A stretch of DNA of 64,000 nt from an uncultured Acidobacteriota bacterium (GCA_963836075.1 CAWIIB010000009.1:2368001-2432000); one strand, 5' to 3'; counted from the first letter of the stretch, positions 12,475 to 31,165 are shown. Program-made: numbers and translations. The notes: generated by a model from the letters alone, not told the origin.

Positions 12475-13504
12475 TCAGGGGGTGATCACCACCCGCACGT
12501 CGCTGCCGAACGTCCCCAGGTCGTCCAGCACGCTGTTGATCGCCTCCGCTTCCAGGGGCACGCTGCGGGTCACCGCCCGGGAGAGGTCCAGACCGCCCCG
12601 GCGGGCCCATTCCAGCAGCTGGGGGATCTCCGAGGCCAGGTGGTCGGAGACCCCGATGATCTCGGCCTCCCGGCCCAGCAGGTCCTTGTAGGGCCGCACC
12701 TGGAACGGGTCGTTGCCCAGGCCGGCCACCGCCGCCCGCCCCTGGACCGCCAGGCAGCGGAAGGCCTGCTCCATGGTCTGCGGCGAGCCCACCAGCTCCA
12801 GGGCCACGTCCACGCCCCGGCCTCCAGTCAGCTTTTTGATCTCCTCCACCGGGTCGAGGGCCGAGGCGTCCACCGGGATGGCCCCGTAGGTCTGGGCCGC
12901 GGTCAGCTTGCTCTGCCGGATGTCCACCGCGTAGACCTCCATGGCGCCGAGGCAGCGGGCCAGCTGGATCGCCGAGGTGCCCAGACCGCCGGCGCCGAAC
13001 ACGGCCACCGTTTCTCCCGCCACCAGCCGCGCCTTTTTGAGGGCGTGGAGCGAGGTGGCCGAGGAGCACATCATGATCGCCCCGTGTTCAAAGGGGATGT
13101 CGTCGGGCAGGATAAAGGCGCTCCGTTCGGGCATCACGATGTATTCGGCATACCCGCCGTCACGGTTGTTGCCGATCATCCGGCCGGTGATCGCAGAACT
13201 GCTCGCTCCCCCGGTCGCAGTGGCAACAGCAGCCGCAGGTGGCCATGTAGTGCAGGCAGACCCGGTCACCCTCCTTGAACCCCCGCACGGCTTCGCCGAC
13301 CCGCTCCACCTCACCGGCCACTTCGTGCCCCGGGGTGAGGGGAAGCGATTTCAGCGTCACCGTGCCGTCCCGGTAGTGGGCGTCGGAATGGCAGATGCCG
13401 GCGGCCCGCACTTTGACCAGCAGGTCATGGGGCCCCACCTCCGGCAGGTCCAGCTCCACCTCGACCAACGGCTTCCCCTGTTCCACCAGTCTCACCGCTT
13501 TCAT
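12475..13504 (-). CDS. Zinc-dependent alcohol dehydrogenase, split by a single frameshift near 13190 (probably an assembly error)
   Basis: N-terminal half (GICHSD, GHEVAG, CxxCxxC) is in ORF 13160..13504. C-terminal half (GGYAEY, GAGGLG) is in ORF 12475..13314. Confidence 0.85.
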
Positions 13505-13546
13505 CGGGTCCTCCCTCGCTGCTCAGCCGGTTGTGCGGAGCACTGA

Positions 13547-14419
13547 TTATACCCGCCTTTTGGCCCAGCGGGCGATCATTCCGGTCAGATTTCCGGCCGC
13601 TTCCCGCCCCTGGGCAAAATAGAGGGCCGGCTCGATCAGCTCCAGTTCCATCAGCAGGAAGCCGGCCTCGGTCTCCACCCCGTCCACCCTGGCGTAGTGC
13701 CAGGGATGGGGGACCGCGGCCACCGCCGCTTCCGCTGCGGCCACCAGCCGGTGGGACGGTTCGCCCCGGGCCACCGTTCCGCCGAAGTCGGGCTGGACCC
13801 GGAAGTCCCCCGGTTTCGGCGATTTGAGCGCTGCGTGGCTATACACCCCGTCGAGGAAGATCAGCGACCACTCGCCCTGACCGGTGATCTCCGGCAGGAA
13901 CCGCTGGACCAACATCTCCTCGATGACCAGGGCCCGCGCCAGTTGCGGTCCGCGGCAGGCCGCTTCTTTCCGCCGCACCCGCCAGGTCTGGTGGGCCGAG
14001 GCGGAGACCGCCGGTTTGACCACCGCATCGTCCCAGCCGGTGCGGCGGAAAATCTCCACCAGCGATTCGCCATCCTCCCGGGAGGGCCAGCAGGTGGGCA
14101 CCACCGCTACGCCGGCGGCTTCCAGGTCGCGGAGGTAGCCCTTGTGGGCGTTCCAGCGGACCACCGGCAGCGGGTTCCAGAGGGTCACCCCGGCACGGTC
14201 CAGCTTTTCGAGCCAGCCGAGGAACTCATCACAGCGCAGGTGGTAGTCCCAGCAGCTGCGGATCAGCACCAGGTCAAAGGACTCCCAGCGAAGATTCTCC
14301 GCGTCCCAGAGGGCTGTCACCACCTCGAAACTGCACTTCAGCAGTTCGTCGCGCAGAATACGGTCGTCGGGGGTCAACCGCGGCAGGTCACGGCAGGTGG
14401 CCAGTGCAATTCGTGTCAC
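13547..14419 (-). CDS. ATP-grasp protein (RimK / glutathione synthetase-like)
   Basis: RSCWDY, NAHKGYL, VVKPAVSA, YARVD and LMELELIEP motifs. Confidence 0.85.
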   Translation of the reverse strand: MTRIALATCRDLPRLTPDDRILRDELLKCSFEVVTALWDAENLRWESFDLVLIRSCWDYHLRCDEFLGWLEKLDRAGVTLWNPLPVVRWNAHKGYLRDLEAAGVAVVPTCWPSREDGESLVEIFRRTGWDDAVVKPAVSASAHQTWRVRRKEAACRGPQLARALVIEEMLVQRFLPEITGQGEWSLIFLDGVYSHAALKSPKPGDFRVQPDFGGTVARGEPSHRLVAAAEAAVAAVPHPWHYARVDGVETEAGFLLMELELIEPALYFAQGREAAGNLTGMIARWAKRRV

Positions 14420-15541: not shown

Positions 15542-16582
15542 TCAGCTTCCGGCGGATTTTCCCGAGCCGAGCATGATCGATATCCAGCGGGTGTCGTCGA
15601 AACTCCCCAGGGCGATCTTGACGATCATGGTCAGCGGCACCGAGAGGAGCATCCCCACCGGGCCCAGCACCCAGCCCCAGAAGATCAGGGAGAGGAAAAC
15701 CACCAGGGTGGAAAGCCCCAGTCCCTGGCCCATGAACTTCGGTTCGATGATGCTGCCCACCAGGATGTTGACCACCAGGTAGCCCGCGGCCACCAGCATG
15801 GTCCGGGGGAGGCCGAACTGGACCAGGGCCAGCAGCACCGCCGGGATGGCGGCGATGATCGAGCCGATGTTGGGCACGAAGTTGAGGAAGAAGGCCAGCA
15901 GGCCCCAGAGCACCGGGTAGTCGACACCGAGGATGGCCAGCCAGATGGTGATCACCAGGCCGGTGGCCAGGCTGACCGCCGTCTTGATCGCCAGGTAGCG
16001 GTTGACGCTTTCGGTGAACTCGCTGAAATGGGCCAGGGTCTTTTGCGGGTCGGCCATGGCCGCCTGGAACTTGGCCCGGAAACCGGCGGCCTCCAGCAGG
16101 ATGAAGACCACGGTGAGCAGGATCATGAACATGTTGGTGGCCATGCCGCCGAGACCGGTGAGCATGTTGGCCGACATCTGCAGCGCCACCCCGGGATTGA
16201 AATGCTCCTCCAGCAGTTGGCGGTTCAGCTGGATGTCCATCCCCTCCAGCCAGGCCACCACCGAGGCCTGGATGCCCTGCAGGCTTTCCAGGTAGGCGGG
16301 GAGCGAGCGGGTGAAGTTGTTGATCGAGGAGCCGACAAAGTAGCCGGTTAGGGTGGTCAGGCCGAGGATGCCCAGCACCACGATCAGCACCGCCAGGACG
16401 TTGGGCACCTTCTTCCGCTGCAGCCAGTAGAGCAGCGGGGCGCAGATGATGGCGATGAAGACAGCGAGAATGAAGGGGATCAGGATCGGGGTGGCGGCCT
16501 TCATCCCGGCCACCACGATGACAAAGCTTGCCGCGGAGATCAGAAAGCGGGAGCCCACGGATGTTTGAGGTCGCTCAGCCAT
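15542..16582 (-). CDS. AI-2E family transporter (YhhT-like)
   Basis: LNFVPNIGS, IEPKFMG and WGWVLGPVGMLLSVPLT motifs; multiple TM segments. Confidence 0.92.
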   Translation of the reverse strand: MAERPQTSVGSRFLISAASFVIVVAGMKAATPILIPFILAVFIAIICAPLLYWLQRKKVPNVLAVLIVVLGILGLTTLTGYFVGSSINNFTRSLPAYLESLQGIQASVVAWLEGMDIQLNRQLLEEHFNPGVALQMSANMLTGLGGMATNMFMILLTVVFILLEAAGFRAKFQAAMADPQKTLAHFSEFTESVNRYLAIKTAVSLATGLVITIWLAILGVDYPVLWGLLAFFLNFVPNIGSIIAAIPAVLLALVQFGLPRTMLVAAGYLVVNILVGSIIEPKFMGQGLGLSTLVVFLSLIFWGWVLGPVGMLLSVPLTMIVKIALGSFDDTRWISIMLGSGKSAGS

Positions 16583-16690
16583 GGGGCCATTCTAGCGGAG
16601 GGGCCGCGGCAAATCCAGCCGCACGGTCGTCCTCTCCGGGGGAGCGCCGGCCGGATGGCGCAGCGGCGAAGTGCAGGCGACAGGCAGCGA

Positions 16691-17760
16691 TCAGGCCCCC
16701 GTTTCGGCGTGAGAAACGTTTTTCAGGCAGCGCAGCCGCTCCGCCGGGGCTCCTGACCCGGAAGCCCGCGTCACCTGGCCCGGAAAGCTGGTCAGCGGGC
16801 AGCGCCGCGCCCCTTCGTCTTCGGAGAACAGCCCCCGGATCCAGGTCAGCGAGAGATCCTGGTCCAGTGCCAGGGTGCCGTCCTCCTTCAGCCGGCCCAC
16901 CTGGTTCTCCGGCCGCTCCAGGGCCAGCGAACACTTGTTCAGCCGGCCGTCGGCCCGGACCACGAAACAGTTGGCCCAGGCCGCGTAGCAGACCGGCCCG
17001 CAGTCCTGCTCGGTGTGCAGAGTGATGCCCCTGGAGGCGGCCAGCTCCCGCAGGGCCACGATCCGCTGGTCCTCCAGCCCGCCCTCCAGCACGGCCACGC
17101 TCTCGTCGTTGGCCCCGCCGAAGCGGGAGAGGGCGCGGATGAAGAGGCGGAAACGCGGGTCAGTTTCGAAGGCCTCACTGTAGAGGTCGATGAACCCGGG
17201 CATCGCCTGGTGGTTCTCCTCGTCCACGTGCACCCGGATGTCGACGATGAACGGATCGGGAACCGCCCGCAGCGACGAGACGTTCTTCCACAGCCGGTCA
17301 AAGGTGCCCCGGCCATCGGCGAGGACCCTTTTTTATCGTGCCACTCTTGCGGCCCGTCGAACGAGATCTGGTACTCGGTCACCCCCCGGGCCAGCAGGCC
17401 TTCGAAGACCTCCCGGGTGAGCAGGTAGCCGTTGGTGGTCATGCTGGAGCTGCACTCTATCTTCGGGTGGGATTCGATCAGCACGCCGACGTGATCCATC
17501 ACCTGCTCCACCACGCCCCGGGCCAGCAGCGGCTCCCCCCCGAACCAGCCGAGGGAGAGGTAGTCGAGCCCCTCCGCCCGGCGACTGAGAAAGCGCTTCA
17601 GCCCCTCCACCACCGGCTCCTCCATCCGGCCGTGCCTGAATTCCTCGTAGCAGTAAGTGCAGCGGAAGTTGCAGGCCTCCGTGGGCAGAACGATCAGGCA
17701 CAGCCGGTTGCCGGCCAGGTAAGGGACCATTTCGGGTGAAGGAGGACGCATGTTGACCAC
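16691..17760 (-). CDS. Radical SAM protein with a SPASM/twitch-like C-terminus, frameshifted at a T6 run (17329-17334)
   Basis: LPTEACNFRCTYCYE (CxxxCxxC), WFGGEPLL, TTNGYLL and QISFDG. Adding one A restores HDKKRVLADGRGTFDRL and joins the frame carrying CYAA...KC...CP. Confidence 0.9.
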
Positions 17761-17780
17761 TGAATATTGACGCCAAATGC

Positions 17781-18122
17781 CTATTCGCAGCTTCCATTGG
17801 GATTCAGTTTGCAGGGGCAGACCTTATCAATCGGGGGGCTGTTGGTTACTATTCCTGGCTTTTCTCGAATTATGATCCCTATGGTACGGTTTGTCTCCTC
17901 CCCTTCAATTTTGGCGAAATGAATTTCCTGGAAGGGGTTTTATGGTGTGCCAGTGGTACAGTCCATTTTATCCGGAGGCCATTCCCAGTCATACTTTTCG
18001 TCGGGCGGACCTTCAACCAGATAGTATATGTTCTCGTCAAACCAAGTGACATCTGCTTGGTCCTCAAGCCAGATCCTTAAATTTCCACTCGCATCCCAAT
18101 CGACTGAAACCTTTCCATTCAT
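17781..18122 (-). CDS. Orphan low-GC small ORF: 60 aa, TAA at 17940-17942, then 52 further open codons; candidate radical SAM / CHAT substrate
   Basis: GGAGG-type RBS before ATG 18122. The frame stays open after the TAA until TAG at 17781-17783 and fills the gap between the CHAT and radical SAM genes. Confidence 0.6.
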
Positions 18123-18202
18123 TCGTCCACCCTCCCTCGCCGCCACGGCCTTGACCTTGGCCGTTCGGCCCCGGTTATTCACCATCACACCTCCCGATCG
18201 CA

Positions 18203-21200
18203 TCACCTCCAATCGCCGGCGGCAACAAAGGCCGCCCAGTGAAACGGGTGGTCGCTGAGGCCCTTTTCCCGCCGGTTTTCCAGCAGGCTGAGACTCGCCT
18301 CACGGACCGCCTGTGCCATGTCCCTGTTCCCGTAGAGCCTCGATCTGTAAAAGGCCTCCATCCAGAATCGTGTGGCCTCGTCGTCCACCGGCCAGAGGCT
18401 CATCACCACCGTGTTCACCCCGGCCAGACGAAAGGCGCGCCGCAGCCCGAACACGCCTTCCCCGGCCTGGACCGTGCCCAGGCCGGTGCCGCAGGCGGAG
18501 AGCACGGCCAGCTGCACCCCGGTGAGATCCAGTGCGGCGATTTCTTCAGCCGTGAGGATGCCGTCCTCGTCACCGGTGGCTGACGCTCCCCGGGTGTTGG
18601 CGTTGGCCAGCGCCAGGCCCGCGCGAAGCAGCGGGTTCGCGCCAGGTGAACTCACCGACACCCTGGTCTCCGGCAGCCCGGTTACCGCCCGGGTTCCCTC
18701 ACCCTTTCCGCCGCCTGCGGCGAACGGGCGCGGATCGAAAAAGTATCCGTGGGTGGCCAGGTGGATCATCCGGCACCCCGGCGCCTGTGTTTTGAATGCC
18801 GCCTCGGTGGCCAATGCCCCGGTGAGACAGGCCACCGCTTCACTACCTCGATCCGGCCACAGCGACGCCACTTCCTCCGCCTCCTGCACCGACTGGGGAA
18901 GTGGGCTGAAACCAAGCGAAGCGTAGCGCACGTCGAGGAAACCTGAGTCTGCCGGAGAGTCGCTGCCGTTGTCCGGGACAGCGGTGTCGGGCGGTGCGTC
19001 CCCGAAATCCGGGGCGCCGAATACCAGTATTCCGCTGCCCTCCCGAGAATCATGGCGTGACGGGCAAAGATCCCTCTCTGCCGTAAGGTAATGAATCGGG
19101 GGGCCCTGCTCCAGGAGGTAGCCTCCATCGTCATCGGGCAGGGCGGCGAAGCTCACCAGGTGCAGGGAGGCGTCGGGAACGATGAAAATCCGTTTCGCTT
19201 TGGCCAGGTGTGCTGTCAGCGGATCCCAGATCTTCTGTCGAAGCGCCAGGCCCGCCGTCCGGTGATCACCCTCGTTCGGTTGACCCGGCAGCCGGATCGG
19301 CAAGATCCCGCGCAGCGCATTGCGCCAGCGGTCCACCAGGCCGTCGATCTCCTCGTTCGTGCCCAGGGGGACCGCATGCACGTCGTCCGAGTCGCTGGAG
19401 ATGACAAAGGCGAGATACGAAGGCAGGGGTGCCTCGCCGGGATCGACGCAGATGGAGTCCTCGTAACGAAAGTAGGCTACCAGGGCGCTGTCCTCCGGCA
19501 GAGCCTCCCTCACCTCGACCAGGCCCAGTTTCAGGCTCTCCTGCTCCTTGCGGAACGCCGCGCTCGCCTCGGCCAGCTTACGCTCGGCCGACGCCTTCCT
19601 CTCCCTGGCCTGCCGGAGGTCATTGGATGTGGGCTCTCCCGCCGAGTCCTGCCCCCCGCACACGGTCAGCCCGGACAACTCCTCACAGGCCAGGCGCAGT
19701 TCGGTGAGCAACGCCTCCATCTCGGGGTCCGCGGAATCCCGGGCCGCGCGGTTGCGGGCCACCAGTTCGTCGAGCACCAGGGCGCGCCAGTGGATCACCG
19801 CATCAAAGGCCCGCTCCAGGCCGGGCAGCCGCTGGCGGGCGCACCTGGCGGCGATGGCCGTTGCCAGGTGGAGCCCGTCTGTTCCTGACGCCGCATAGCG
19901 GAGGGCCAGCTGGGCTTCCAGCGTGCGGGAGGTGAGGAGCAGGTGCTCTCGCGAAAACTGCTCAGCTTGCAACGCGGTTTCCAGGGCACGGTCATTCTCA
20001 CCGAGGGCCGCCTGGGCGCGGCCGAGATCGTTCAGAGTCTCGAGCATCAGGACGTGGTCGTGATCCTCTGCCTGCTGGTGGAGATCGCTTATCCGGTTCA
20101 GCAGATCCCGTGCCTCAGCGTAGTTGCCGGTGGAGCAGTGCAGCCGGGCCATAATGTGCAGTGGAAAGAGTGTCTGCAGATGGTCTTCGCCGTAATTGGC
20201 CCGGGCGATTTCGGTGGCTCGCCCGATGACGGCCGCAGCTTCCTCGAACCGGCCGGTCTTCCGCAGAAAGTCTCCGTAACAGCAGAGAAAGTAGCAGAGG
20301 TCCGTTTTCGGTTGATAGCTTTCCTGCTCAGCCACGGCCAGCGCGTGCTCGAAGTGTAGCCGGGCTTCGTCGTGCTTGCCCAGATCGTAAAGGACGTTGG
20401 CCAGCATGATCTGGGTATGGAGTGTGCTCCTGTGTTCTCGGTCCTGGCTCGCTTGCTGGATTTCCAAAGCGCTTTCATATAAGCGGCGCGACTCCTCGAG
20501 ATCTCCGATCCGGCTGAAATAACCAGCCAGGCTCATGAGGCTTGAGGCCACCATGAGGTGGTCGGGCCCCAGGTTCTCCACGAAAATGGCCAGGCTTCGC
20601 TCCAGGTGCTGACGCGCGCCGCTGTAGTCCCCGATGATTTCCAGAAGGATTCCCAGGCTGCGGTGACTGTTGGCGATCAGGGGATGTCCGGGCCGCAGGA
20701 CTCTTTGCCTCATCGCCAGGGCGCGCGCGCAGAGCCGCTGGGCCTTGGTGAAGTTTCTCCGTTGTTGGACGGCGCCTTCCATATTCAGGCGCTCGGCCAC
20801 GTCGGGATGGTCGGCCGGGAGTGTGGAGTCCTGGATTCGGGCGGCCCGTGCCAGGTATTCCAGCGCCTCAGTGATCCCGCCGTCCTGGTCGTCGCGAACA
20901 CCGCCGAGCATGATCAGGGTCATGGCCGTGTCCGGGTGCAGGGGATCCAGCGTGCACTCCTGGATACCGAGGGCATGTTCAAAGGCCGTACAGGCTTCAT
21001 CAATCTCATTGCGGAAAAAGTGGAGGCGGCCCAGCTCGAAGTACCCGGACGCCACGACGGGATGCTCGGCGCCGAGCAGTTCGATCTTCCGCTCGAGAGA
21101 GCGGCGCGCCAGGTCCAGGGTTTCCGGATCATCATGCCGGTTGATCCGGCGCAGGGCTCCGGAGAGGAGCGACATCATCTCGGCCCGGGCCAGGGCATGA

Positions 21201-21508
21201 CGTTTTGCGTTTTCAGTGGCTGCGTTGTCGGTGTCTCCACTGTCCTTGTCCGGCGGCAGCCAGTCCTCGTCATCTCCGGATGCCTCCAGCAGCTCGCGCG
21301 CCCGGGCCTCGGCCTTGATGTAATACCCGTCCGCGATTAAATTCCGGACTTCCTCGACGTGGCTTTCCTCCACCGGAACGGGCTTTGTGCAGGAGAGAGG
21401 TGCCAGCAAGGCAAGCAGGAATAGCACAAACACGGCAAACGAATGTTGGCCCAGGCGGCCGGGGCCGTCCAGATGAGAGAGCAATGGCGATTTCAGGGGC
21501 ACGGGCAC
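18203..21508 (-). CDS. TPR-repeat CHAT-domain (caspase/HetF-like, clan CD) protease with an N-terminal hydrophobic anchor
   Basis: Kinesin-light-chain-type TPRs (LGAEHPVVA, LDPLHPDTA, LGPDHLMVA). Intact dyad motifs IHLATHG and VLSACGTGLG, plus SLWPVDD and HPFHWAAF. Confidence 0.93.
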   Translation of the reverse strand: MPVPLKSPLLSHLDGPGRLGQHSFAVFVLFLLALLAPLSCTKPVPVEESHVEEVRNLIADGYYIKAEARARELLEASGDDEDWLPPDKDSGDTDNAATENAKRHALARAEMMSLLSGALRRINRHDDPETLDLARRSLERKIELLGAEHPVVASGYFELGRLHFFRNEIDEACTAFEHALGIQECTLDPLHPDTAMTLIMLGGVRDDQDGGITEALEYLARAARIQDSTLPADHPDVAERLNMEGAVQQRRNFTKAQRLCARALAMRQRVLRPGHPLIANSHRSLGILLEIIGDYSGARQHLERSLAIFVENLGPDHLMVASSLMSLAGYFSRIGDLEESRRLYESALEIQQASQDREHRSTLHTQIMLANVLYDLGKHDEARLHFEHALAVAEQESYQPKTDLCYFLCCYGDFLRKTGRFEEAAAVIGRATEIARANYGEDHLQTLFPLHIMARLHCSTGNYAEARDLLNRISDLHQQAEDHDHVLMLETLNDLGRAQAALGENDRALETALQAEQFSREHLLLTSRTLEAQLALRYAASGTDGLHLATAIAARCARQRLPGLERAFDAVIHWRALVLDELVARNRAARDSADPEMEALLTELRLACEELSGLTVCGGQDSAGEPTSNDLRQARERKASAERKLAEASAAFRKEQESLKLGLVEVREALPEDSALVAYFRYEDSICVDPGEAPLPSYLAFVISSDSDDVHAVPLGTNEEIDGLVDRWRNALRGILPIRLPGQPNEGDHRTAGLALRQKIWDPLTAHLAKAKRIFIVPDASLHLVSFAALPDDDGGYLLEQGPPIHYLTAERDLCPSRHDSREGSGILVFGAPDFGDAPPDTAVPDNGSDSPADSGFLDVRYASLGFSPLPQSVQEAEEVASLWPDRGSEAVACLTGALATEAAFKTQAPGCRMIHLATHGYFFDPRPFAAGGGKGEGTRAVTGLPETRVSVSSPGANPLLRAGLALANANTRGASATGDEDGILTAEEIAALDLTGVQLAVLSACGTGLGTVQAGEGVFGLRRAFRLAGVNTVVMSLWPVDDEATRFWMEAFYRSRLYGNRDMAQAVREASLSLLENRREKGLSDHPFHWAAFVAAGDWR

Positions 21509-21564
21509 CTCGTCTCAGAAAGCATCTATTGTTTTTACGATAAAGATTTAATTACGTTTTGATA

Positions 21565-21593
21565 AATATGTGGAGAAAGGGGGAAAAAGTCAA
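21565..21593 (-). promoter_or_regulatory. Putative sigma70 promoter for the CHAT-orphan-rSAM module
   Basis: Minus-strand TTGACT-N17-CATATT in an AT-rich gap about 60 nt upstream of the CHAT start. Confidence 0.45.
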
Positions 21594-21659
21594 GGGGAAG
21601 GGCTGCTCCCTTTGTTTCCAGTAATATCCGTATACAACAGGTGACTTCAGATCAATGCT

Positions 21660-21788
21660 TCAGACCTTGCCCTCGTTGACCAGCCGGGCGAAGTGGCTGA
21701 ACGAGCGGTCCCATGAGGCTTCGGCATCATCGGGAACGACGCAGGCCGGCCTGGTGAAGGCGTCGATCTGGAACATCTTCAGCTTCAC
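21660..21788 (-). pseudogene. 42-aa remnant: PhzF-family N-terminus fused to an unrelated C-terminus
   Basis: MKLKMFQIDAFTRPACVVP resembles the PhzF start (QIDAFT...GNPACVVP) with the middle missing. The GTG overlaps the upstream stop. Confidence 0.6.
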
Positions 21789-22306
21789 GGTTTCTTTCCT
21801 CCCGTGGCCACGGCCACTCCGGACAGGCGGGTCCAGGTCCAGCCGCGCGATTCGGTCTTGCCGTTCACAGCACCTGAAATGGTGACGGTGAGCGTGTCTG
21901 ATGCAGTCAGCTGGTAGGTGATCCGCTGGGGGAAGTCGTGGGCCTTGTTTTCGAACACCGCCCTGCTCCCCGAGCACTCCACCAGCTTGAAAGAGGTGGC
22001 ATCCCCGCCCCTGGGAGAGGCGCGGTAGAACACGCCCTCGGCGGTCTGCTCCAGGCGCAGGTATTCGAAAAAGGCTTTGCCGGATTCGCTCATATCCCGA
22101 TTCAGTCCCAGCATCAGGCCCCCGGCCGGGGGCAGCCATAATTCTTCGGTGACCCGGCCTTCGGATCCGCCATGCCAGTGGCCGGCCAGCCAGACCAACT
22201 GGTCCAGAGTCGGTGTTTCGATGATCGGGGGCGTTGTATCCGCGTGGACCGGTGATGAAAGGAGCAGCAATATGGCGGTGACGAAAAGCAGAGTCAGATT
22301 TCTCAT
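21785..22306 (-). CDS. Exported DUF6265-like protein
   Basis: Signal peptide; LVWLAGHW, EELW, FFEYLRL and FENKAHDFPQRITY motifs. Confidence 0.8.
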   Translation of the reverse strand: MRNLTLLFVTAILLLLSSPVHADTTPPIIETPTLDQLVWLAGHWHGGSEGRVTEELWLPPAGGLMLGLNRDMSESGKAFFEYLRLEQTAEGVFYRASPRGGDATSFKLVECSGSRAVFENKAHDFPQRITYQLTASDTLTVTISGAVNGKTESRGWTWTRLSGVAVATGGKKP

Positions 22307-22403
22307 GTCCACCTCGGGCGCGATTCTGATGTCCGGCTCAGTGCTTAGAACAGTATACACGCGTCAGCGGGGTGGACGGGGCCGCAGGCGGTGGGGGGAA
22401 GAA

Positions 22404-22432
22404 GAAAACGGGGGCCGCCGGGCGGCCCCCGT
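22404..22432 (-). terminator. Rho-independent terminator downstream of the 22485..24107 gene
   Basis: Minus-strand stem ACGGGGGCCGC/GCGGCCCCCGT followed by TTTCTTC. Confidence 0.75.
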
Positions 22433-22484
22433 CAAAGTTATCGAATGTCAGCACCCTGGCAGGGTGCTGACGGAAAGCGATCGC

Positions 22485-24107
22485 TTAGGGGCAGATCGTG
22501 GTGACACCGCAGGTGGCGGTCTCGATCCAGCCGGCCGCGTCAAGTCCTGCATCTTCGCAATAGGTGCAGTCGGTGGCTTCGACGTCGAAGACCAGGGTGC
22601 AGTTACAGGTCGGCGGCAATGCCGGGATGTACTGGCCCCAGCCGATGAACGTGGTCTCACCGGCCATGAGCACCATGTTGCCCGCACGGAGGTTGGAGAT
22701 GTGCGCACCACTGCAGGTGGTCACACCGACATTACCGCAGATCTGACGGGCGGAGTCGAAGGTGCTGGTGACGTAGACGCGGAGCTGGGTCTGCGCGGGC
22801 ACGATAAACGGCTCCGTGTCGCAGGTCATGCTCACGTCGAAGGTGTCCACCGGGGTGGCCGGGGTGACCACCACGTCGAGGTCGAAATCACCCTCGGAAA
22901 GGGCACCGCTCGAATAGTAGGAGTCGGCCATGATGTAGTAGTAGCCGGCACAGTTGAAGGTCAGCGTCGCGGTTTCCGGGTCACCGGTGAGGCCGGCGTC
23001 GGCACCGCCGACACAACTGCCCACCGGGTCATAGCAGTCGCTGATGACGTAGAGGGCCGGATCCCAGTCGGTGGTCGGCGTCAGGGTCAGGTCGAGGGTG
23101 TCGCCATCGTTGGCATAGAACGAGTAGACGGCTTCCGGGCCGCTGGTGGCGTAATCGATGCAGTCCGCGGTGACGTCGACGAAGTTCCTCGCGCAGACGG
23201 TGGTGCCGCTGAAGGTGCCGCCGGTCCCCACGTTGATCGCCTGCCAGCACTCGTCGTTGGGCACCAGGCCGTTGAGGTAGACGTTGAGGTTGTAGCCGCC
23301 CCCGCCGCCTTCACCGTGGAAGTCGACGTAGATATACATCGTGGTGGCATCGCCGGCGGTGGTGGTGTAGCAGAAATACTCACTGCTCCACGTGCCCCAG
23401 TCGTCGGCGCCGGCAACGGCGGTCACCGGCCCGTCGGTGCACTCGTTGCTCAGGGCGATGGTGATGTCCTGCTCGGTCCACGGATAGGCATTGACGCAGA
23501 CCTCGTAGCCCGGGCACGGGATCTCGAGGGCATAGACGTGGTCGTTGCCCTCCAGCGGATAGGCCCAGAGGTTGTAGCTGGGGAAGGTGTTGCTGCAGTT
23601 GGTGGTGTCACCGGAGTTGTAGCTGTCGGTGAGCAGCTGGGCGCTGGCGCAGTCATCGGGGCCGACGCAGACAGGCAGATCCGAGAAGTCGAAGTCGATG
23701 GTGTCCCAGGTGGCGTCGGGCAGGCCGTCGGCACCGTCATCGTAGGATTCGTAGAAGTCGAAGGTCCAGACACCGGCCGGGTCGCCGCCGGCCAGGGTGG
23801 AGTCGGTCCCGGTAAAGGCTGCGCCGGGAGCATAGGTGGTGCCGCTGCCCAGGGTCAGGAAGGCCGTACCCAGGGGGCCGGAGATGTCGCACCGCAGCTC
23901 GGAGCCGTAGGTGCCGCTGTTGATCGTGGAGGCGAAACCGTCCCAGTCAAGGGAGGACATGGTGAAACCACCGGTGACGGTGGCGGTATAACTGACAAGG
24001 CCGGAGGTGGCCTGGCTGTCAACAGCGGTGAAGGATACCACTTCAGCGCCGGCGCCGACGGATACCGTCAGCATGATCGCGCAAAGACAAGCAAGTAACT
24101 TACTCAT
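22485..24107 (-). CDS. Secreted acidic Cys-rich protein: two PPC-like repeats plus a conserved C-terminal domain
   Basis: Signal peptide MSKLLACLCAIMLTVSVGAGA. Internal repeats start GPDDCASA and PNDECWQA. The C-terminal ~120 aa resembles that of the neighbouring gene. Confidence 0.85.
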   Translation of the reverse strand: MSKLLACLCAIMLTVSVGAGAEVVSFTAVDSQATSGLVSYTATVTGGFTMSSLDWDGFASTINSGTYGSELRCDISGPLGTAFLTLGSGTTYAPGAAFTGTDSTLAGGDPAGVWTFDFYESYDDGADGLPDATWDTIDFDFSDLPVCVGPDDCASAQLLTDSYNSGDTTNCSNTFPSYNLWAYPLEGNDHVYALEIPCPGYEVCVNAYPWTEQDITIALSNECTDGPVTAVAGADDWGTWSSEYFCYTTTAGDATTMYIYVDFHGEGGGGGYNLNVYLNGLVPNDECWQAINVGTGGTFSGTTVCARNFVDVTADCIDYATSGPEAVYSFYANDGDTLDLTLTPTTDWDPALYVISDCYDPVGSCVGGADAGLTGDPETATLTFNCAGYYYIMADSYYSSGALSEGDFDLDVVVTPATPVDTFDVSMTCDTEPFIVPAQTQLRVYVTSTFDSARQICGNVGVTTCSGAHISNLRAGNMVLMAGETTFIGWGQYIPALPPTCNCTLVFDVEATDCTYCEDAGLDAAGWIETATCGVTTICP

Positions 24108-26955: not shown

Positions 26956-29900
26956 CTATGCTTCGGGTGTCGAATCGGAAGCGGGATCCGGGTTCCCGTC
27001 CGGATACGATGAGGGTGTGATACCGAACTGCTCGCGGAAGCAGCGTGTGAAATGACTGAGGCCCTTGAATCCGACGGAATAGGCCACCTCGGTTACATTT
27101 CCGTAACGGCCCCTGAGCAGTTCGGCGGCACGGTGCAGCCGGTGGGAACGGATGAACTCCCTTGGGCCCAGGTCGGTCAACGCCTTCAATTTCCGGTGGA
27201 GCTGGCCGCGGCTCAGGCCGACCTCCCGGGCGTAGGCCGCCACCGACAGGTCATCTTCGAGGTGTTCGTCGATGATCTCACGGCAGCGCTCCAGGAACCG
27301 GTCGTCCATGGATGTTACGGGCAGGGGGTCGGGATCGAGAGATTTGACCCGGTCGGCATATCGTTCCTGCAGCTGGCGGCGCAAGGCGGTCAGGTTCGCG
27401 ATACGGGCCATCAGCTCCCGGGAATCGAACGGCTTGGCGAGGTAGTCGTCGGCACCGTGCTCCAGACCGGTCAACCGGTTCTCGATGCCGACTTTGGCCG
27501 TCAGCAGGATCACCGGGACGTGACTGGTGCGCCAGTCGGTCTTCAGACGGCGGCAGAGTTCGAGGCCGTCCATCACCGGCATCATCACATCGGAAATCAC
27601 CAGGTCGGGAATCTCCGCCAGCGCCAGTTGCAGAGCCTCCTCACCGTTCACAGCGGTGAGCACGTTGTAGGAAGAGCCCAGCGACTGGGCCAGGTACTGG
27701 CGCAGGTCTTGATTGTCTTCCGCCACCAGCAGTTGCTGCCGGCCGGAGGAGGCGGCCTCCTCTTCCTCAGTAGTCGTTTCCGCGGCAGGAGTGGCGGCGT
27801 CGGCGGGTTGGCAGGGCTCGCCAGCCTTCCTTGACGGCGGTTCCAGGAACAGCGGCAGCTCCACGGTGAAACAGGTGCCCCGCTCGGAATCACTGCTCAG
27901 GTGGACAGACCCCTCCAGCAAACTCACCAGTTCTTTGACCAGGGCGAGACCCAAACCGGAACCGCCCGCCCGCCCGCCTCCGGCCAACTGCTGGAAACGG
28001 TCGAAGACCAGCTCGTGCTCGGCGGGCGGGATGTAGGAACCCGTGTTGGCCACCGAGAGGCAGAGCCCCCGCGAGAATCCTTCGGTGCGTAAATATGCAG
28101 AACCCGGGTCAACGGGTATTGGATGGGATCGCGGTGTTGCCGCCACCGTGGAATTGACCACGATCCGGCCGCCGGGCGGCGTGTGCTTGACCGCGTTGGT
28201 CACCAGGTTCACAGTCACCTTCTCCAGCAGGTCGGCATCGAACCACAAGACTGCCGGGTCCTCGGGGATCCGCACCTGCAGGTCGATACCGCCTTCGCTT
28301 GCCAGGGGCTCGAAACCGGTGATCAGGGTCCGCAGGAACGCGGTCACGTCGTTGCAGCCCCAGTGCAGGGGCAGGCGACCGGCCTCCAGGCGCGAGAGGT
28401 CGAGGAGCTGGTCGATGAGCTGCCCCAGACGATCGGCATTGCGGCTCATCATCGCAAAGAGTTCGGCGTTCCCGGAGTCGGGGGCCTCACGCAGCCGCTG
28501 CAGCGGGGTGCGCAGCAGGGTGAGCGGTGTGCGAAACTCGTGGGACACATTGGAGAAGAACCGCTTTCGCAACCGGTCGAGGTCCTGCCACTGCCGGGCT
28601 TCGACCCGCTCCACTTCCAGTGCCGTGCGGATTCGCATGCGCTGGATGATCTGCCGGTAGACCAGGGCCACGAACCCCAGGGCCAGCAGCATGTAGACCA
28701 GTCTTGCCCCGGCGGACTGCCACCAGGGAGGCAGGATTCGGATGTCGAGACGGGTCTCTTCCTCGTTCCACAGCCCGTCGGCATTGCTCCCTCGCACACG
28801 AAAGGTGTAGCGGCCGGGCGAGAGGCTGGTGTAGATTGCACGCCGGTCCTGGCCGGGGTCGCGCCAGTCGTCGTCCACCCCATCGAGGCGGAAACGATAG
28901 CGGTTGCGCTCGGGGCGGGCAAAGTGGAGCGTGGCAAAATTAAGGGTTATGTCGTTTTGATCGTGCGCCAGCGTGATGCCGTCCTTCAGTTCTATGGCCC
29001 GGTCAAGCGGTGAACCCGGCCCCGGCCTGACCTCCCGGTCAGCGATGCGGAGTGCGGTGATCACCACCGGGGGCACGAAATCGGACCGGCGGAAAGTGGT
29101 CGGATCGAAGGAGACCAGGCCGCCGCGGCCGCCGAAGTAGATGGTGCCGTCGTGGCCGCGGGCATATCCGAAGTGCACCTTGTTTGTGGGCAGGCCATCC
29201 CTGGAGTCGAAGCTGCGGAGCTCCCGGGTTTGCGGGTCGTAGCGGGCGAAACCACGATCCGTGGACATCCAGAGCATGCCGTTTTCGTCGGCCAGCAGGG
29301 AGCCGACCTGGTCATGGGGCAGACCGTCGGGCCCGCTGATCGCCTCCACCACCCGCCCGTCCTGATCGAGGCGCAGCAGCCCGGCAAAGGTGCCCATCCA
29401 GAGATTGCCCTCCAGGTCCTCTGCGGCGCACATGGGGGAGGCCAGACCTCTGTCGGGATCGAAGCAAATGACAAGGCTGTCCGTCTGCTTGTCGTGGAAG
29501 GCCAGGCCACGTGTATCGAAGAGAATCCACATCCGTCCCCGGCGATCGCGATAGATCCCGATCACGTTCCTGCTTGGTGAGTTGGCCGCCACACCTTCCC
29601 GCACCGTGTAGGTCCGCAGCCGGGACGTTTCCGGCTCCCACACACTCAGCCCGTCCGATGTGCTCCCCACCCAGATATGGCCGGCCTCGTCGATGGCCAG
29701 GGCCCGGACATTGGTCCGATACGCCGGGTCGCCGGGTTTCGAGAGGCCGGGCACGCGCTCTGGGGTCGTCTTCCCTCTGGGCAGTGTCCAGAGGCCCTGG
29801 TCTGTGCCGATCCAGATCGATCCCTGGCGGTCCTCGCAGATGGCGAGGACCTTGGTCGGCGGTGAGACCTCATCGGCGGGGAAGGGGTGGTGCCGGAATT

Positions 29901-31165
29901 TCGTTTCACCCGGCAGCCGGCTATTCAGACCGCCAGGTCCTGATACCCGTCGACAGGTGGCCGGTGCCCACCCAGAGCACGCCGCGGGAGTCCTCGAAGA
30001 TTCCCTGGACCACTCCGTAATCGAGAGAACCGGGATCGTCGGGATCATGGGTCTCCACGCGAAACTGGTTGGCGTCTGGATTGATCTTGTTCAAGCCGGC
30101 GTGCCAGCTACCACCCCAGACTATGCCCGCCGTGTCGCAATGGATGCTCAGCACGGGACCGTCGAGAACCGTATCGCCGTTTTCGGGGTCGTGATCGTAA
30201 TGCTGGAACCGGCCGGTGTCCGGCTCGAACCCGTACATGCCGTCCGCCGCACCGATCCAGAGCCGACCCGCCTGGTCATGATCGACACAGACGAGGTAGT
30301 TCTGGATGTGCTCGGGATCCTCCGGCAGGGGAACGATCGACGTGAATCCCTGCGTGGCCGGATTGAAACGGGCAAGCCCCTTGCGGGTGGCCACCCAGAT
30401 TCGCCCACGGTCGTCCTGGTGCAGGTAGGTGGCGAGGTCTGCCGGCAGACTGGCTGGATCGTCCGGATCATGGCGGAAGTGGTGCCAGCGGTCGGATCCC
30501 GGCTCCCGGTACGCCACGCCTGCCCCTTCGCTGGCCACCCACAAGCGCCCGGAGGCATCCATCATCACCCAGCTCAGCGTCGCATCAGGCGGTGCGCTGT
30601 CCACCGGCTCGCCGGGCTGAAGCCGGTGTTCCTGCACGGAACCGGCCTGCGGATCGATGGCCGCCAGCCATCCCTCGGCCGTGGCGGCCCAGACCGTGCC
30701 GTCCGATGCCTGGCAGAGGCTGTTCACCTGCACTCCACCCAGTCGGTGCTCCTCGGGGGAGTCCGGTCCCCAGTGGTCGAAACGCCCGGTATCGGGATGC
30801 AGCCGCCACAGTCCGGTGGAGAAGGTGCCGATCCAGATGTCCCCATCCCGGTCCTCGAACAGGGCGGTGGTGCCGAGGTTCTGGGGCCGGCCCGTGGATT
30901 CAAGGACCGGGGCGAATGGCACCAGTGATCGGCCGTCGTAGCGGACCAGGCCGTTTTGCGTTCCGAACCAGAGGAAGCCGAGACGGTCCTGGACCATGGC
31001 GCGCACGGAACTGTCGGGTAGACCGTCATCGACGGTCAGGTGCTCGAAACGGGGGGCGGCAGGCAATGTCTGCGCGGGGGCCGGGCTGCTGATCATCAGC
31101 AGCAGGATGACGAGGATGATCTTTCGGCCCGATCGGATGCTGTCCTGTCTAGCGATGTCACTCAT
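26956..31165 (-). CDS. Hybrid two-component system (beta-propeller sensor, YYY, TM, HisKA, HATPase, REC, AraC HTH), single frameshift near 29945
   Basis: Reg_prop repeats ([15 protein letters not shown]), [40 protein letters not shown] and [13 protein letters not shown]. ORFs 29921..31201 and 26956..30048 join. Confidence 0.93.

Follow-up and report, generated by a model that had tools for sequence, protein, structure and literature searches.

A conserved cassette of small peptide, radical SAM enzyme and TPR-CHAT protease, and a possibly inactive copy in an uncultured Acidobacteriota bacterium

Among the radical S-adenosylmethionine (SAM) enzymes that mature peptides, the streptococcal enzyme NxxcB is reported to join a cysteine sulfur to the beta carbon of asparagine in a thioether and to tolerate aspartate as the acceptor, and beta- and gamma-thioethers are reported for PapB and CteB (PMC9389541). 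In a different setting, the anti-sigma factor DdvA senses through a periplasmic TPR-CHAT domain, for a signal that has not been identified (PMC11506125). Genes for both kinds of protein stand side by side at positions 16,691 to 21,508 of a 64,000-nucleotide stretch of DNA, referred to here in its entirety as the window, from an uncultured Acidobacteriota bacterium (GCA_963836075.1 CAWIIB010000009.1:2368001-2432000). Three genes, co-directional as a first-pass annotation made from the sequence had stated and all on the minus strand, encode a TPR-CHAT protease, a small open reading frame (ORF) and a radical SAM enzyme. We conclude that this trio belongs to a conserved cassette of three genes, so far undescribed, which is found again in uncultured bacteria of distant lineages. 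With confidence slightly better than even, we further read the cassette as a peptide, a thioether-forming enzyme and an exported CHAT protein, whose peptide and enzyme half is slightly more likely than not to be inactive in this genome.

Recurrence was examined at 160 loci, comprising the best 80 of at least 555 relatives of the enzyme found in 600 scanned stretches of one-genome-per-species contigs and the best 80 of at least 566 relatives found in 590 scanned metagenome stretches. The annotation had named recurrence with CHAT and small ORFs as a test of its proposal, and such recurrence was found: a TPR-CHAT gene, detected by tblastn with the window's protein, is adjacent in 12 of the 160 loci, which are the six best-scoring of each collection, and in 0 of the other 148, and most of the 12 have a small ORF next to the enzyme. 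The six genome loci (L013-L018) come from two Eisenbacteria, one member of the Omnitrophota, two Planctomycetota and one unclassified bacterium; two of the six metagenome loci (L093-L098), L096 and L097, are near-identical. The gene order is CHAT-peptide-enzyme at L013 to L016, L018, L094, L095 and L098, enzyme-CHAT-peptide at L093 and L096/L097, and peptide-enzyme-extracytoplasmic function (ECF) sigma factor-kinase-CHAT at L017. In a FastTree phylogeny of 167 enzyme rows (157 of 161 loci plus 10 database proteins; four loci with matches shorter than 250 residues were dropped, among them that of a genome of the same genus as the window's, G002), all 12 CHAT-linked enzymes fall inside one 30-row clade. 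The genome that holds the window (G000) carries about eight TPR-CHAT genes, a single one of which adjoins the enzyme studied here, and a quick tree of CHAT proteins groups the 12 linked sequences with one G000 paralogue on a long branch, apart from six other G000 paralogues. That the linked CHAT proteins cluster in spite of these many paralogues implies that the module moves as a unit between phyla. The trio is more than a chance adjacency and represents a conserved unit.

A survey of the window's own phylum found the enzyme at E <= 1e-30 in 17 of 401 sampled genomes; the 19 new loci that it yielded show no CHAT gene within +/-1.5 kb, a flank too short to inform. Searches of 8.1 million PMC papers and 0.36 million preprints returned no report that pairs CHAT with a radical SAM/SPASM enzyme, the supplementary tables of compendia of radical SAM enzymes for peptides that are made by the ribosome and modified after translation (RiPPs) being a place where the clade may be listed. 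The annotation did not recognize the combination as a named RiPP class; no curated NCBIfam cut-off is reached and, those tables apart, no matching literature was found. The precursor and enzyme family is unnamed and fails each curated-family test that was run, and by analogy it may work like a thioether RiPP system.

The 1101-aa TPR-CHAT protein with an intact His/Cys dyad that the annotation had described is encoded by the ORF 21508..18203. In Pfam, the CHAT domain (PF12770) covers residues 753-1099 (2.5e-69, 234 bits against a cut-off of 24), and TPR_12 matches seven stretches. The motifs HLATHG (residues 916-921) and LSACGT (1003-1008), which we take to be the carriers of the CHAT dyad (His920/Cys1006), are both retained in 11 of the 12 cassette-linked homologues; the twelfth, at L018, retains the His motif only. 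Inspected by eye, the first ~45 residues close with a hydrophobic stretch and then ...PLSC; in the G002 orthologue, whose identity over the full length is 42%, the corresponding residues are LLSC, and the N-termini of other homologues are hydrophobic and of a plain signal-like type. The window's CHAT is probably an exported, lipoprotein-like protein. A DdvA-type anti-sigma factor begins with a cytoplasmic zinc anti-sigma domain and a TM helix and has its cognate ECF sigma gene adjacent; the window's CHAT does not have this architecture, with only ~45 residues before the TPR region and an upstream gene that encodes a DUF6265 protein (22360..21785, minus) and not a sigma factor.

The enzyme gene is broken by a frameshift that is real in the assembly, as the annotation had noted, and its two pieces continue one TIGR04463 profile without a gap (profile positions 80-206 and 207-384). 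Full-length relatives read ...WHDKKRVLADG... across the break, from which it follows that the window lacks one A of an A7 run at 17334-17329. The combination of a CxxxCxxC site with a CYAA...KC...CP tail is present as described: the N piece carries CNFRCTYC and belongs to the radical SAM superfamily (PF04055, 7.8e-13; 49 bits, cut-off 29.5), and the C piece, to which no Pfam family matched, carries C-Y-A-A...K-C...C-P. The 27 full-length relatives in the alignment measure 327-362 aa, with P0001 the nearest at 81% identity; C255, G269, C274 and C318 are invariant in them. A SPASM domain follows the pattern C-x9-15-G-x4-C, then CxxCx5Cx3C, then a final C. Across the 27 relatives, C-x13-G-x4-C and the distal C-P are conserved but the CxxCx5Cx3C block is absent, so the tail is not a full seven-Cys SPASM domain and is best regarded as twitch-like or as a reduced SPASM. 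Only ~25 residues precede the cluster motif in the family, which therefore lacks a RiPP recognition element (RRE), in agreement with the annotation; in families that bear an RRE the profile matches begin at about position 80, and in PapB and DynA at position 4.

All of the best NCBIfam matches of the enzyme are peptide maturases. TIGR04463 ranks highest, with 149 bits for P0001 and 128-157 bits for five other family members against a cut-off of 525. A place among the sulfatase maturases would have refuted the annotation's proposal; by sequence the enzyme does not group with them (TIGR03942, 48 bits against a cut-off of 349, versus 149 bits for TIGR04463). No sulfatase gene adjoins it in the window, and only 1 of 54 neighbour proteins in the relatives is a sulfatase. 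The nearest solved sequence is CteB (5wgg, 2.6e-11), and the AlphaFold model (pLDDT 87.9) has anSME and CteB as its nearest folds, with query TM-scores of 0.57-0.67. The enzyme is predicted to be cytoplasmic, and the wider enzyme family appears to be RiPP-type because tandem precursor genes and C39-ABC exporters adjoin its members. Elsewhere in the genome, a frameshifted sulfatase gene (G000:C8:123244-125626) adjoins another radical SAM match (C8:125357-125626); the two probably form a genuine sulfatase/maturase pair, which is separate from the present enzyme.

An iterated hidden Markov model (HMM) built from one small ORF (L103) recovered 46 ORFs in 37 of the 160 loci. All 46 share the strand of the enzyme; 39 are upstream of it and 7 downstream, 43 are within 600 nt, up to four copies stand in tandem, and some peptides of this wider family have ...ELEEIAGG double-glycine-type leaders. 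The CHAT-linked small ORFs are longer (77-168 aa) and share a leader phi-x-phi-D-x-x-G-x-phi-x-phi followed by a helix; a search with an HMM made from them brings up members of the wider family at ranks 14-31. Of 12 distinct CHAT-linked peptides, 10 have an N-x-x-C motif at the C-terminus or close to it, which in 7 is followed by P/S/G-C, and one more has D-x-x-C. Position and motif together provide good evidence that the small ORFs are enzyme substrates across the family. Clustering of the 80 genome loci placed an ABC-transporter gene cluster at 18 and an HlyD-like cluster at 9; one representative per transporter cluster was tested against Pfam, and the ABC representative is a C39-peptidase exporter. 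Conserved exporters are missing from the CHAT-linked loci, as the annotation had anticipated in finding no dedicated exporter. The window's AI-2E transporter gene (15542-16582) was considered for that role and dismissed as a mere neighbour, since it recurs in 0 of 161 loci. By eye, the small protein of L093 (4645-5040) has a Tat-type lipoprotein signal, RREFL...LLAGC, and that of L017 (7572-7955) a lipobox, hints that some modified peptides may reach the compartment of CHAT.

The window's own small ORF is an outlier in this family. Its start at ATG 18122 has GGGAGGG 7 nt upstream, and a gene caller's alternative start, ATG 18185, gives 81 aa. Up to an in-frame TAA (17942-17940) it encodes 60 aa with a single Cys and a leader-like V-S-V-D-W-D-A-S-G-N-L-R-I-W-L segment. 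Past the TAA, the frame runs on for 52 further open codons, with no ATG, GTG or TTG, to TAG 17783-17781, and this second part ends ...D-K-V-C-P-C (17828-17811)...N-G-S-C-E; D-K-V-C and N-G-S-C are located only beyond the TAA. The D-K-V-C-P-C motif resembles the [N/D]-x-x-C-(P-C) termini of the CHAT-linked peptides. The annotation had passed over that stop and described a low-GC, Trp/Tyr/Cys-rich orphan with gaps of about 80 and 20 nt to its neighbours. Low GC and orphan status stand, as does the first gap if translation starts at ATG 18122; the Cys-rich label and the 20-nt gap arose because the ORF had been read through the TAA and hold only on that reading. Stopped at the TAA, the ORF lies 188 nt from the enzyme's ATG 17751, and read through to the TAG it lies 29 nt away.

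The frame of the small ORF has one stop in 113 codons (46% GC), where about six would be expected by a rough estimate from base composition; the other two frames of the region have about 9-11 stops each. The 362-nt segment has a GC content of 0.46 and a third-position GC content (GC3) of 0.48-0.54, compared with a GC3 of 0.77-0.91 in neighbouring genes. A repeat or mobile element was considered as the origin of the segment and rejected, the segment being unique in G000. A word-index search with the 60-aa form and with the read-through form (X at the stop) returned only the genome's own 81-aa gene call; exhaustive phmmer returned the ORF itself and P0038, which was discarded as a tandem-repeat artefact; the ESM Atlas gave no usable match, NCBIfam and Pfam nothing meaningful. 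An alignment search of G000 for a canonical precursor elsewhere, run with no positive control, gave 0 matches. Co-folding of the 60-aa ORF with the relative P0001 scored 0.57, rated as weak support, compared with 0.01 for the best of three controls. We do not count this as evidence: of 80 solved complexes 58 attain the mark in question, as do 2 of 110 mismatched pairs, and the range up to 0.60 among those reaching it holds 7 of the 80 solved complexes and both mismatched pairs; the runs agree in at least 37% of contacts, with a partner pLDDT of ~50. The second part (17865-17905, minus) also contains GAAGGGGAGGAG, which strongly resembles a Shine-Dalgarno sequence, and GAGACA-N17-CATAAT (17897..17869), which is promoter-like; the enzyme, or a short core peptide, may be expressed on its own from these signals.

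This copy of the cassette has two lesions within 600 nt, the A7 to A6 change in the enzyme and the in-frame TAA in the small ORF, and a whole CHAT gene. In G002 the peptide gene is absent: immediately after the CHAT stop comes an enzyme ORF without its first ~90 residues, CxxxCxxC among them; the lesion differs from that of the window and strikes the same half. The G002 locus (L012, G002:C20, 8351-13813) holds an ECF sigma gene (13259-13813), a gene for a 257-aa protein with no Pfam match, the CHAT orthologue and the truncated radical SAM ORF, and GGAGGTGATG-like microhomology with the window sequence is seen at its CHAT/enzyme junction. Public contigs bear on the enzyme break in different ways. 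In a metagenome contig of 93% identity an additional base at 17333 leaves the frame open across the break, a second contig with the window's own sequence stops exactly at the edge of the A-run, none bridges the run in the identical strain, and none of those compared covers 17740-18195. We rate decay of the window's copy at somewhat above an even chance and an assembly artefact at somewhat below one, so that an inactive peptide and enzyme half is marginally the likelier state of this genome. An inactive half would match the partial deletion of the same half in the sister species.

The mechanism that we envisage would begin with a precursor having a basic N-terminus, the leader phi-x-phi-D-x-x-G-x-phi-x-phi, then a helix, and [Asn/Asp]-x-x-Cys(-Pro-Cys) as its C-terminal tail. 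The radical SAM enzyme, which is cytoplasmic, has no RRE and keeps a single reduced SPASM/twitch site for an auxiliary cluster, would recognize this leader. By analogy to NxxcB and PapB, it would bond the sulfur of the Cys to a carbon in the Asn or Asp three residues upstream, giving a small thioether ring. The exported TPR-CHAT, with its His/Cys dyad intact, would meet the modified peptide outside the cytoplasm and might there cut off the leader, taking the place of the C39-ABC exporters, S49 peptidase or subtilase of relatives, or might instead bind the peptide as a ligand. ECF sigma and DUF4384 Ser/Thr kinase genes share the operon in about a third of loci.

The annotation had suggested that CHAT may release or activate the modified product; we infer that CHAT processes or senses the peptide outside the cytoplasm. 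Processing is favored because, where relatives have no CHAT, a different protease stands in its position, C39-ABC in many; L021 (5957-7807; the same as L104 and L106) has a Peptidase_S49 (SppA-like) gene directly upstream, in the place of CHAT, in one subclade, and L015 (8918-11716), which does have CHAT, carries a 932-aa subtilase after the enzyme as well. CHAT may also act in sensing or signalling, given the DdvA precedent and the signalling genes nearby: Ser/Thr kinases with DUF4384 at L014, L015 and L017, also L032 and L091, and ECF sigma genes at L017, L032, L098 (a weak match) and in G002. The window has neither an ECF sigma factor nor a kinase next to CHAT. A more speculative proposal, which we hold to be unlikely, is that the cyclised peptide is an extracytoplasmic signal for which the exported TPR-CHAT serves as both receptor and processing enzyme, with relay through the DUF4384 Ser/Thr kinase to the ECF sigma factor. 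If true, Gram-negative and uncultured phyla would have a peptide signalling pathway that is new, and there would be a candidate for the type of ligand perceived by periplasmic TPR-CHAT sensors such as DdvA.

Several observations weigh against the reading of a conserved peptide-modifying cassette that is damaged here. The GC3 of the small ORF is unlike that of any neighbour; with or without read-through it has no homologue among 5.8 billion clusters and 1.84 billion representatives; the L103-family HMM misses its 60-aa, part-2 and read-through forms (E <= 1000); and it is outside the top 40 of the HMM from CHAT-linked peptides. Since neither HMMs nor databases detect it, its membership rests on position, open frame and short motifs, and the case for it as a substrate, drawn from its position, open frame, leader-like segment and D-K-V-C-P-C/N-G-S-C end, is weaker than that for the family. 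L021, with full flanks and inside the CHAT-linked clade, is without CHAT, as are four partial-flank loci of the clade, the remaining non-linked rows being too short to judge. No exporter is conserved and most linked peptides are without a signal peptide, which leaves their route to an exported protease unexplained. Finally, the G000 assembly is error-prone: a GC3 frame-switch scan, biased to one class of shift, flags 153-221 candidate sites, and five flagged sites that were tested comprise three clear frameshifts in conserved genes, one probable and one undecided. The clear cases are a UvrD/PcrA-type helicase (L206, C1:838568-840938; UvrD-helicase profile 1-224 and 229-271), a PFL-like glycyl radical enzyme (L208, C9:1074615-1076994; profile 1-477 and 480-647) and a sulfatase (L210, C8:123244-125227; profile 2-123 and 148-301). 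With such an assembly, the enzyme frameshift may be an artefact and the copy active.

That last possibility amounts to the same cassette with its copy intact, in which the missing A is an assembly error and the TAA either an error or a natural feature, the latter giving two peptides or a core peptide started from a non-canonical codon after GGGGAGGAG at about 17905-17897. To this explanation we assign a real but smaller-than-even chance. Beyond the scan, it is favored by the homopolymer in which the enzyme lesion sits, by the native GC3 (0.87-0.88) and full set of conserved residues in both enzyme pieces, by the near absence of stops in the peptide frame, and by the identical contig, which ends at the A-run edge as a variant site would cause it to do. 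Against it, two lesions less than 600 nt apart are unlikely at ~1 error per 15-30 kb (a rough estimate), substitution errors that create stops are rarer than indels, the second part of the ORF offers no ATG, GTG or TTG, and the sister species shows a real loss of the same half. It is unlikely, in our assessment, that CHAT is instead an extracytoplasmic sensor or protease of an ECF sigma or Ser/Thr kinase pathway with which the radical SAM pair just shares an island. ECF sigma and/or DUF4384 kinase genes at L014, L015, L017, L032, L098 and in G002 would fit this, as would the DdvA precedent for periplasmic TPR-CHAT in ECF signalling (PMC11506125) and the intact CHAT beside a damaged peptide and enzyme half in both G000 and G002. 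The linkage, however, is confined to a single enzyme clade and a single CHAT cluster, and it survives changes of phylum and gene order, other proteases occupy the place of CHAT in relatives, and the signalling genes are absent beside the window's CHAT.

Two further explanations concern the substrate and the purpose of the system. The enzyme could mature a protein, for example CHAT before its export, as anSME does for sulfatases and QhpD for a dehydrogenase subunit, the small ORF being incidental. The joint-best structural match to anSME, the missing RRE and the window ORF with no homologue suit such a role, which we nevertheless consider improbable in view of the anSME model score given above and of the strand, spacing, tandem copies and double-glycine-type leaders of the 46 peptide ORFs, which occur also in loci without CHAT. 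The annotation had also raised defence as an option, and nothing was found that points to it. An anti-phage module with CHAT as effector protease, after the manner of the type III-E CRISPR craspase, would draw on the action of TPR-CHAT proteases in craspase systems (PMC10028731), and prokaryotic viperins are radical SAM enzymes. PADLOC, however, gave generic matches only (pVip, 46 bits on the radical SAM core; TPR, 1e-4), CHAT looks exported, and the neighbours at the 12 loci are signalling and housekeeping genes; this is the least probable of the explanations, with a very small chance of being correct.

The features of the locus are compiled in Table 1. The promoter-like site TTGACT-N17-CATATT of the annotation is present ~57 nt 5' of GTG 21508 and is a consensus match only; a pattern scan saw four sites of this type in 6 kb, with 0.9 expected from shuffles. 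Upstream (21660-21880, minus), the GC3 frame switches near 21870, the end of the DUF6265 gene, and an open tail then runs to 21660, just before the CHAT promoter region; this may be a second frameshift or a gene remnant, and Pfam gives no match. A PhzF-like remnant, suggested by a motif in the tail at 21660-21800, was rejected for want of Pfam support. Rfam returned nothing at E <= 1 on 16000-22500. Farther away in the window (26956-30048, minus) is a gene for a 1030-aa hybrid two-component protein with a Reg_prop/Y_Y_Y propeller, HisKA/HATPase, receiver and AraC HTH domains.

Table 1. Features of the cassette locus in window coordinates
Feature	Position	Strand	Basis or remark
Sigma-70-like promoter match, TTGACT-N17-CATATT	21565..21593	minus	9/12 consensus positions, AT-rich spacer; pattern only
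TPR-CHAT caspase-like protease gene, 1101 aa	18203..21508	minus	Pfam CHAT and TPR_12; His920/Cys1006 motifs
Small ORF part 1, 60 aa from ATG 18122	17940..18122	minus	Ends at TAA 17942-17940
Small ORF part 2, 52 open codons, candidate core	17781..17939	minus	Three-frame translation; ends at TAG 17783-17781
Radical SAM enzyme, N piece, CxxxCxxC	17329..17760 (likely start ATG 17751)	minus	PF04055, TIGR04463
A6 run, enzyme frame break	17329..17334	minus	Relatives have one base more
Radical SAM enzyme, C piece, auxiliary-cluster tail C-x13-G-x4-C ... C-P	16691..17332	minus	TIGR04463 positions 207-384

Radical SAM peptide maturases are a main source of new peptide chemistry, and the clade described here is both RRE-less and below every curated NCBIfam cut-off. 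If CHAT processes or senses a cross-linked peptide, modified-peptide biosynthesis would be linked with TPR-CHAT signalling as represented by separase, craspase and DdvA, a form of protease signalling whose natural ligands are largely unknown. Intact, testable examples of the family are available in metagenome-assembled genomes of Eisenbacteria, Omnitrophota and Planctomycetota. The window's copy, being damaged or mis-assembled, is less directly useful. Its peptide is an outlier, and any broken gene in this genome calls for read-level confirmation.

DdvA is likewise an extracytoplasmic TPR-CHAT protein with a His/Cys dyad and an ECF sigma link that awaits an unknown protein or peptide signal, and it regulates CBASS/CRISPR; it has no reported radical SAM or peptide partner (PMC11506125), and the window's CHAT, by contrast, has only a signal-like N-terminus and no cytoplasmic zinc anti-sigma domain. 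In craspase (the TPR-CHAT protein Csx29 with Cas7-11 and Csx30), a TPR-CHAT is reported to cleave the product of a neighbouring gene (PMC10028731); craspase is cytoplasmic, RNA-guided and CRISPR-linked, none of which was seen in the cassette. An exported caspase-like protease was not found reported as the partner of any RiPP in the literature searched, main texts being covered and supplementary tables lying outside. The double-glycine RiPPs and bacteriocins are approached by family members without CHAT, which have ...ELEEIAGG-type leaders beside a C39-ABC exporter and HlyD, but the CHAT-linked clade is without exporter and GG motif and has its longer peptides' core at the extreme C-terminus. 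By sequence and fold the best relatives of the enzyme are TIGR04463 (149 bits) and CteB/PapB (TIGR03974, NF047865; PapB 100 bits), maturases that act on Cys-containing peptide substrates; CteB (5wgg) matches at 2.6e-11 with a query TM-score of 0.63-0.67. Scores are nonetheless far under the curated cut-offs (525, 340 and 425), and the cassette enzyme is without the CxxCx5Cx3C SPASM block and the N-terminal RRE of CteB. NxxcA/NxxcB differs in turn from the cassette, whose enzyme is RRE-less with a reduced SPASM, whose hosts are Gram-negative or uncultured phyla and whose partner is an exported TPR-CHAT. The likeness to NxxcA/NxxcB lies in the peptide motif, which the window's own ORF shows as D-K-V-C and N-G-S-C only past its TAA: an Asn-x-x-Cys precursor is paired there with a radical SAM enzyme bearing auxiliary Fe-S (PMC9389541), and N-x-x-C is the motif carried by 10 of the 12 peptides of the cassette.

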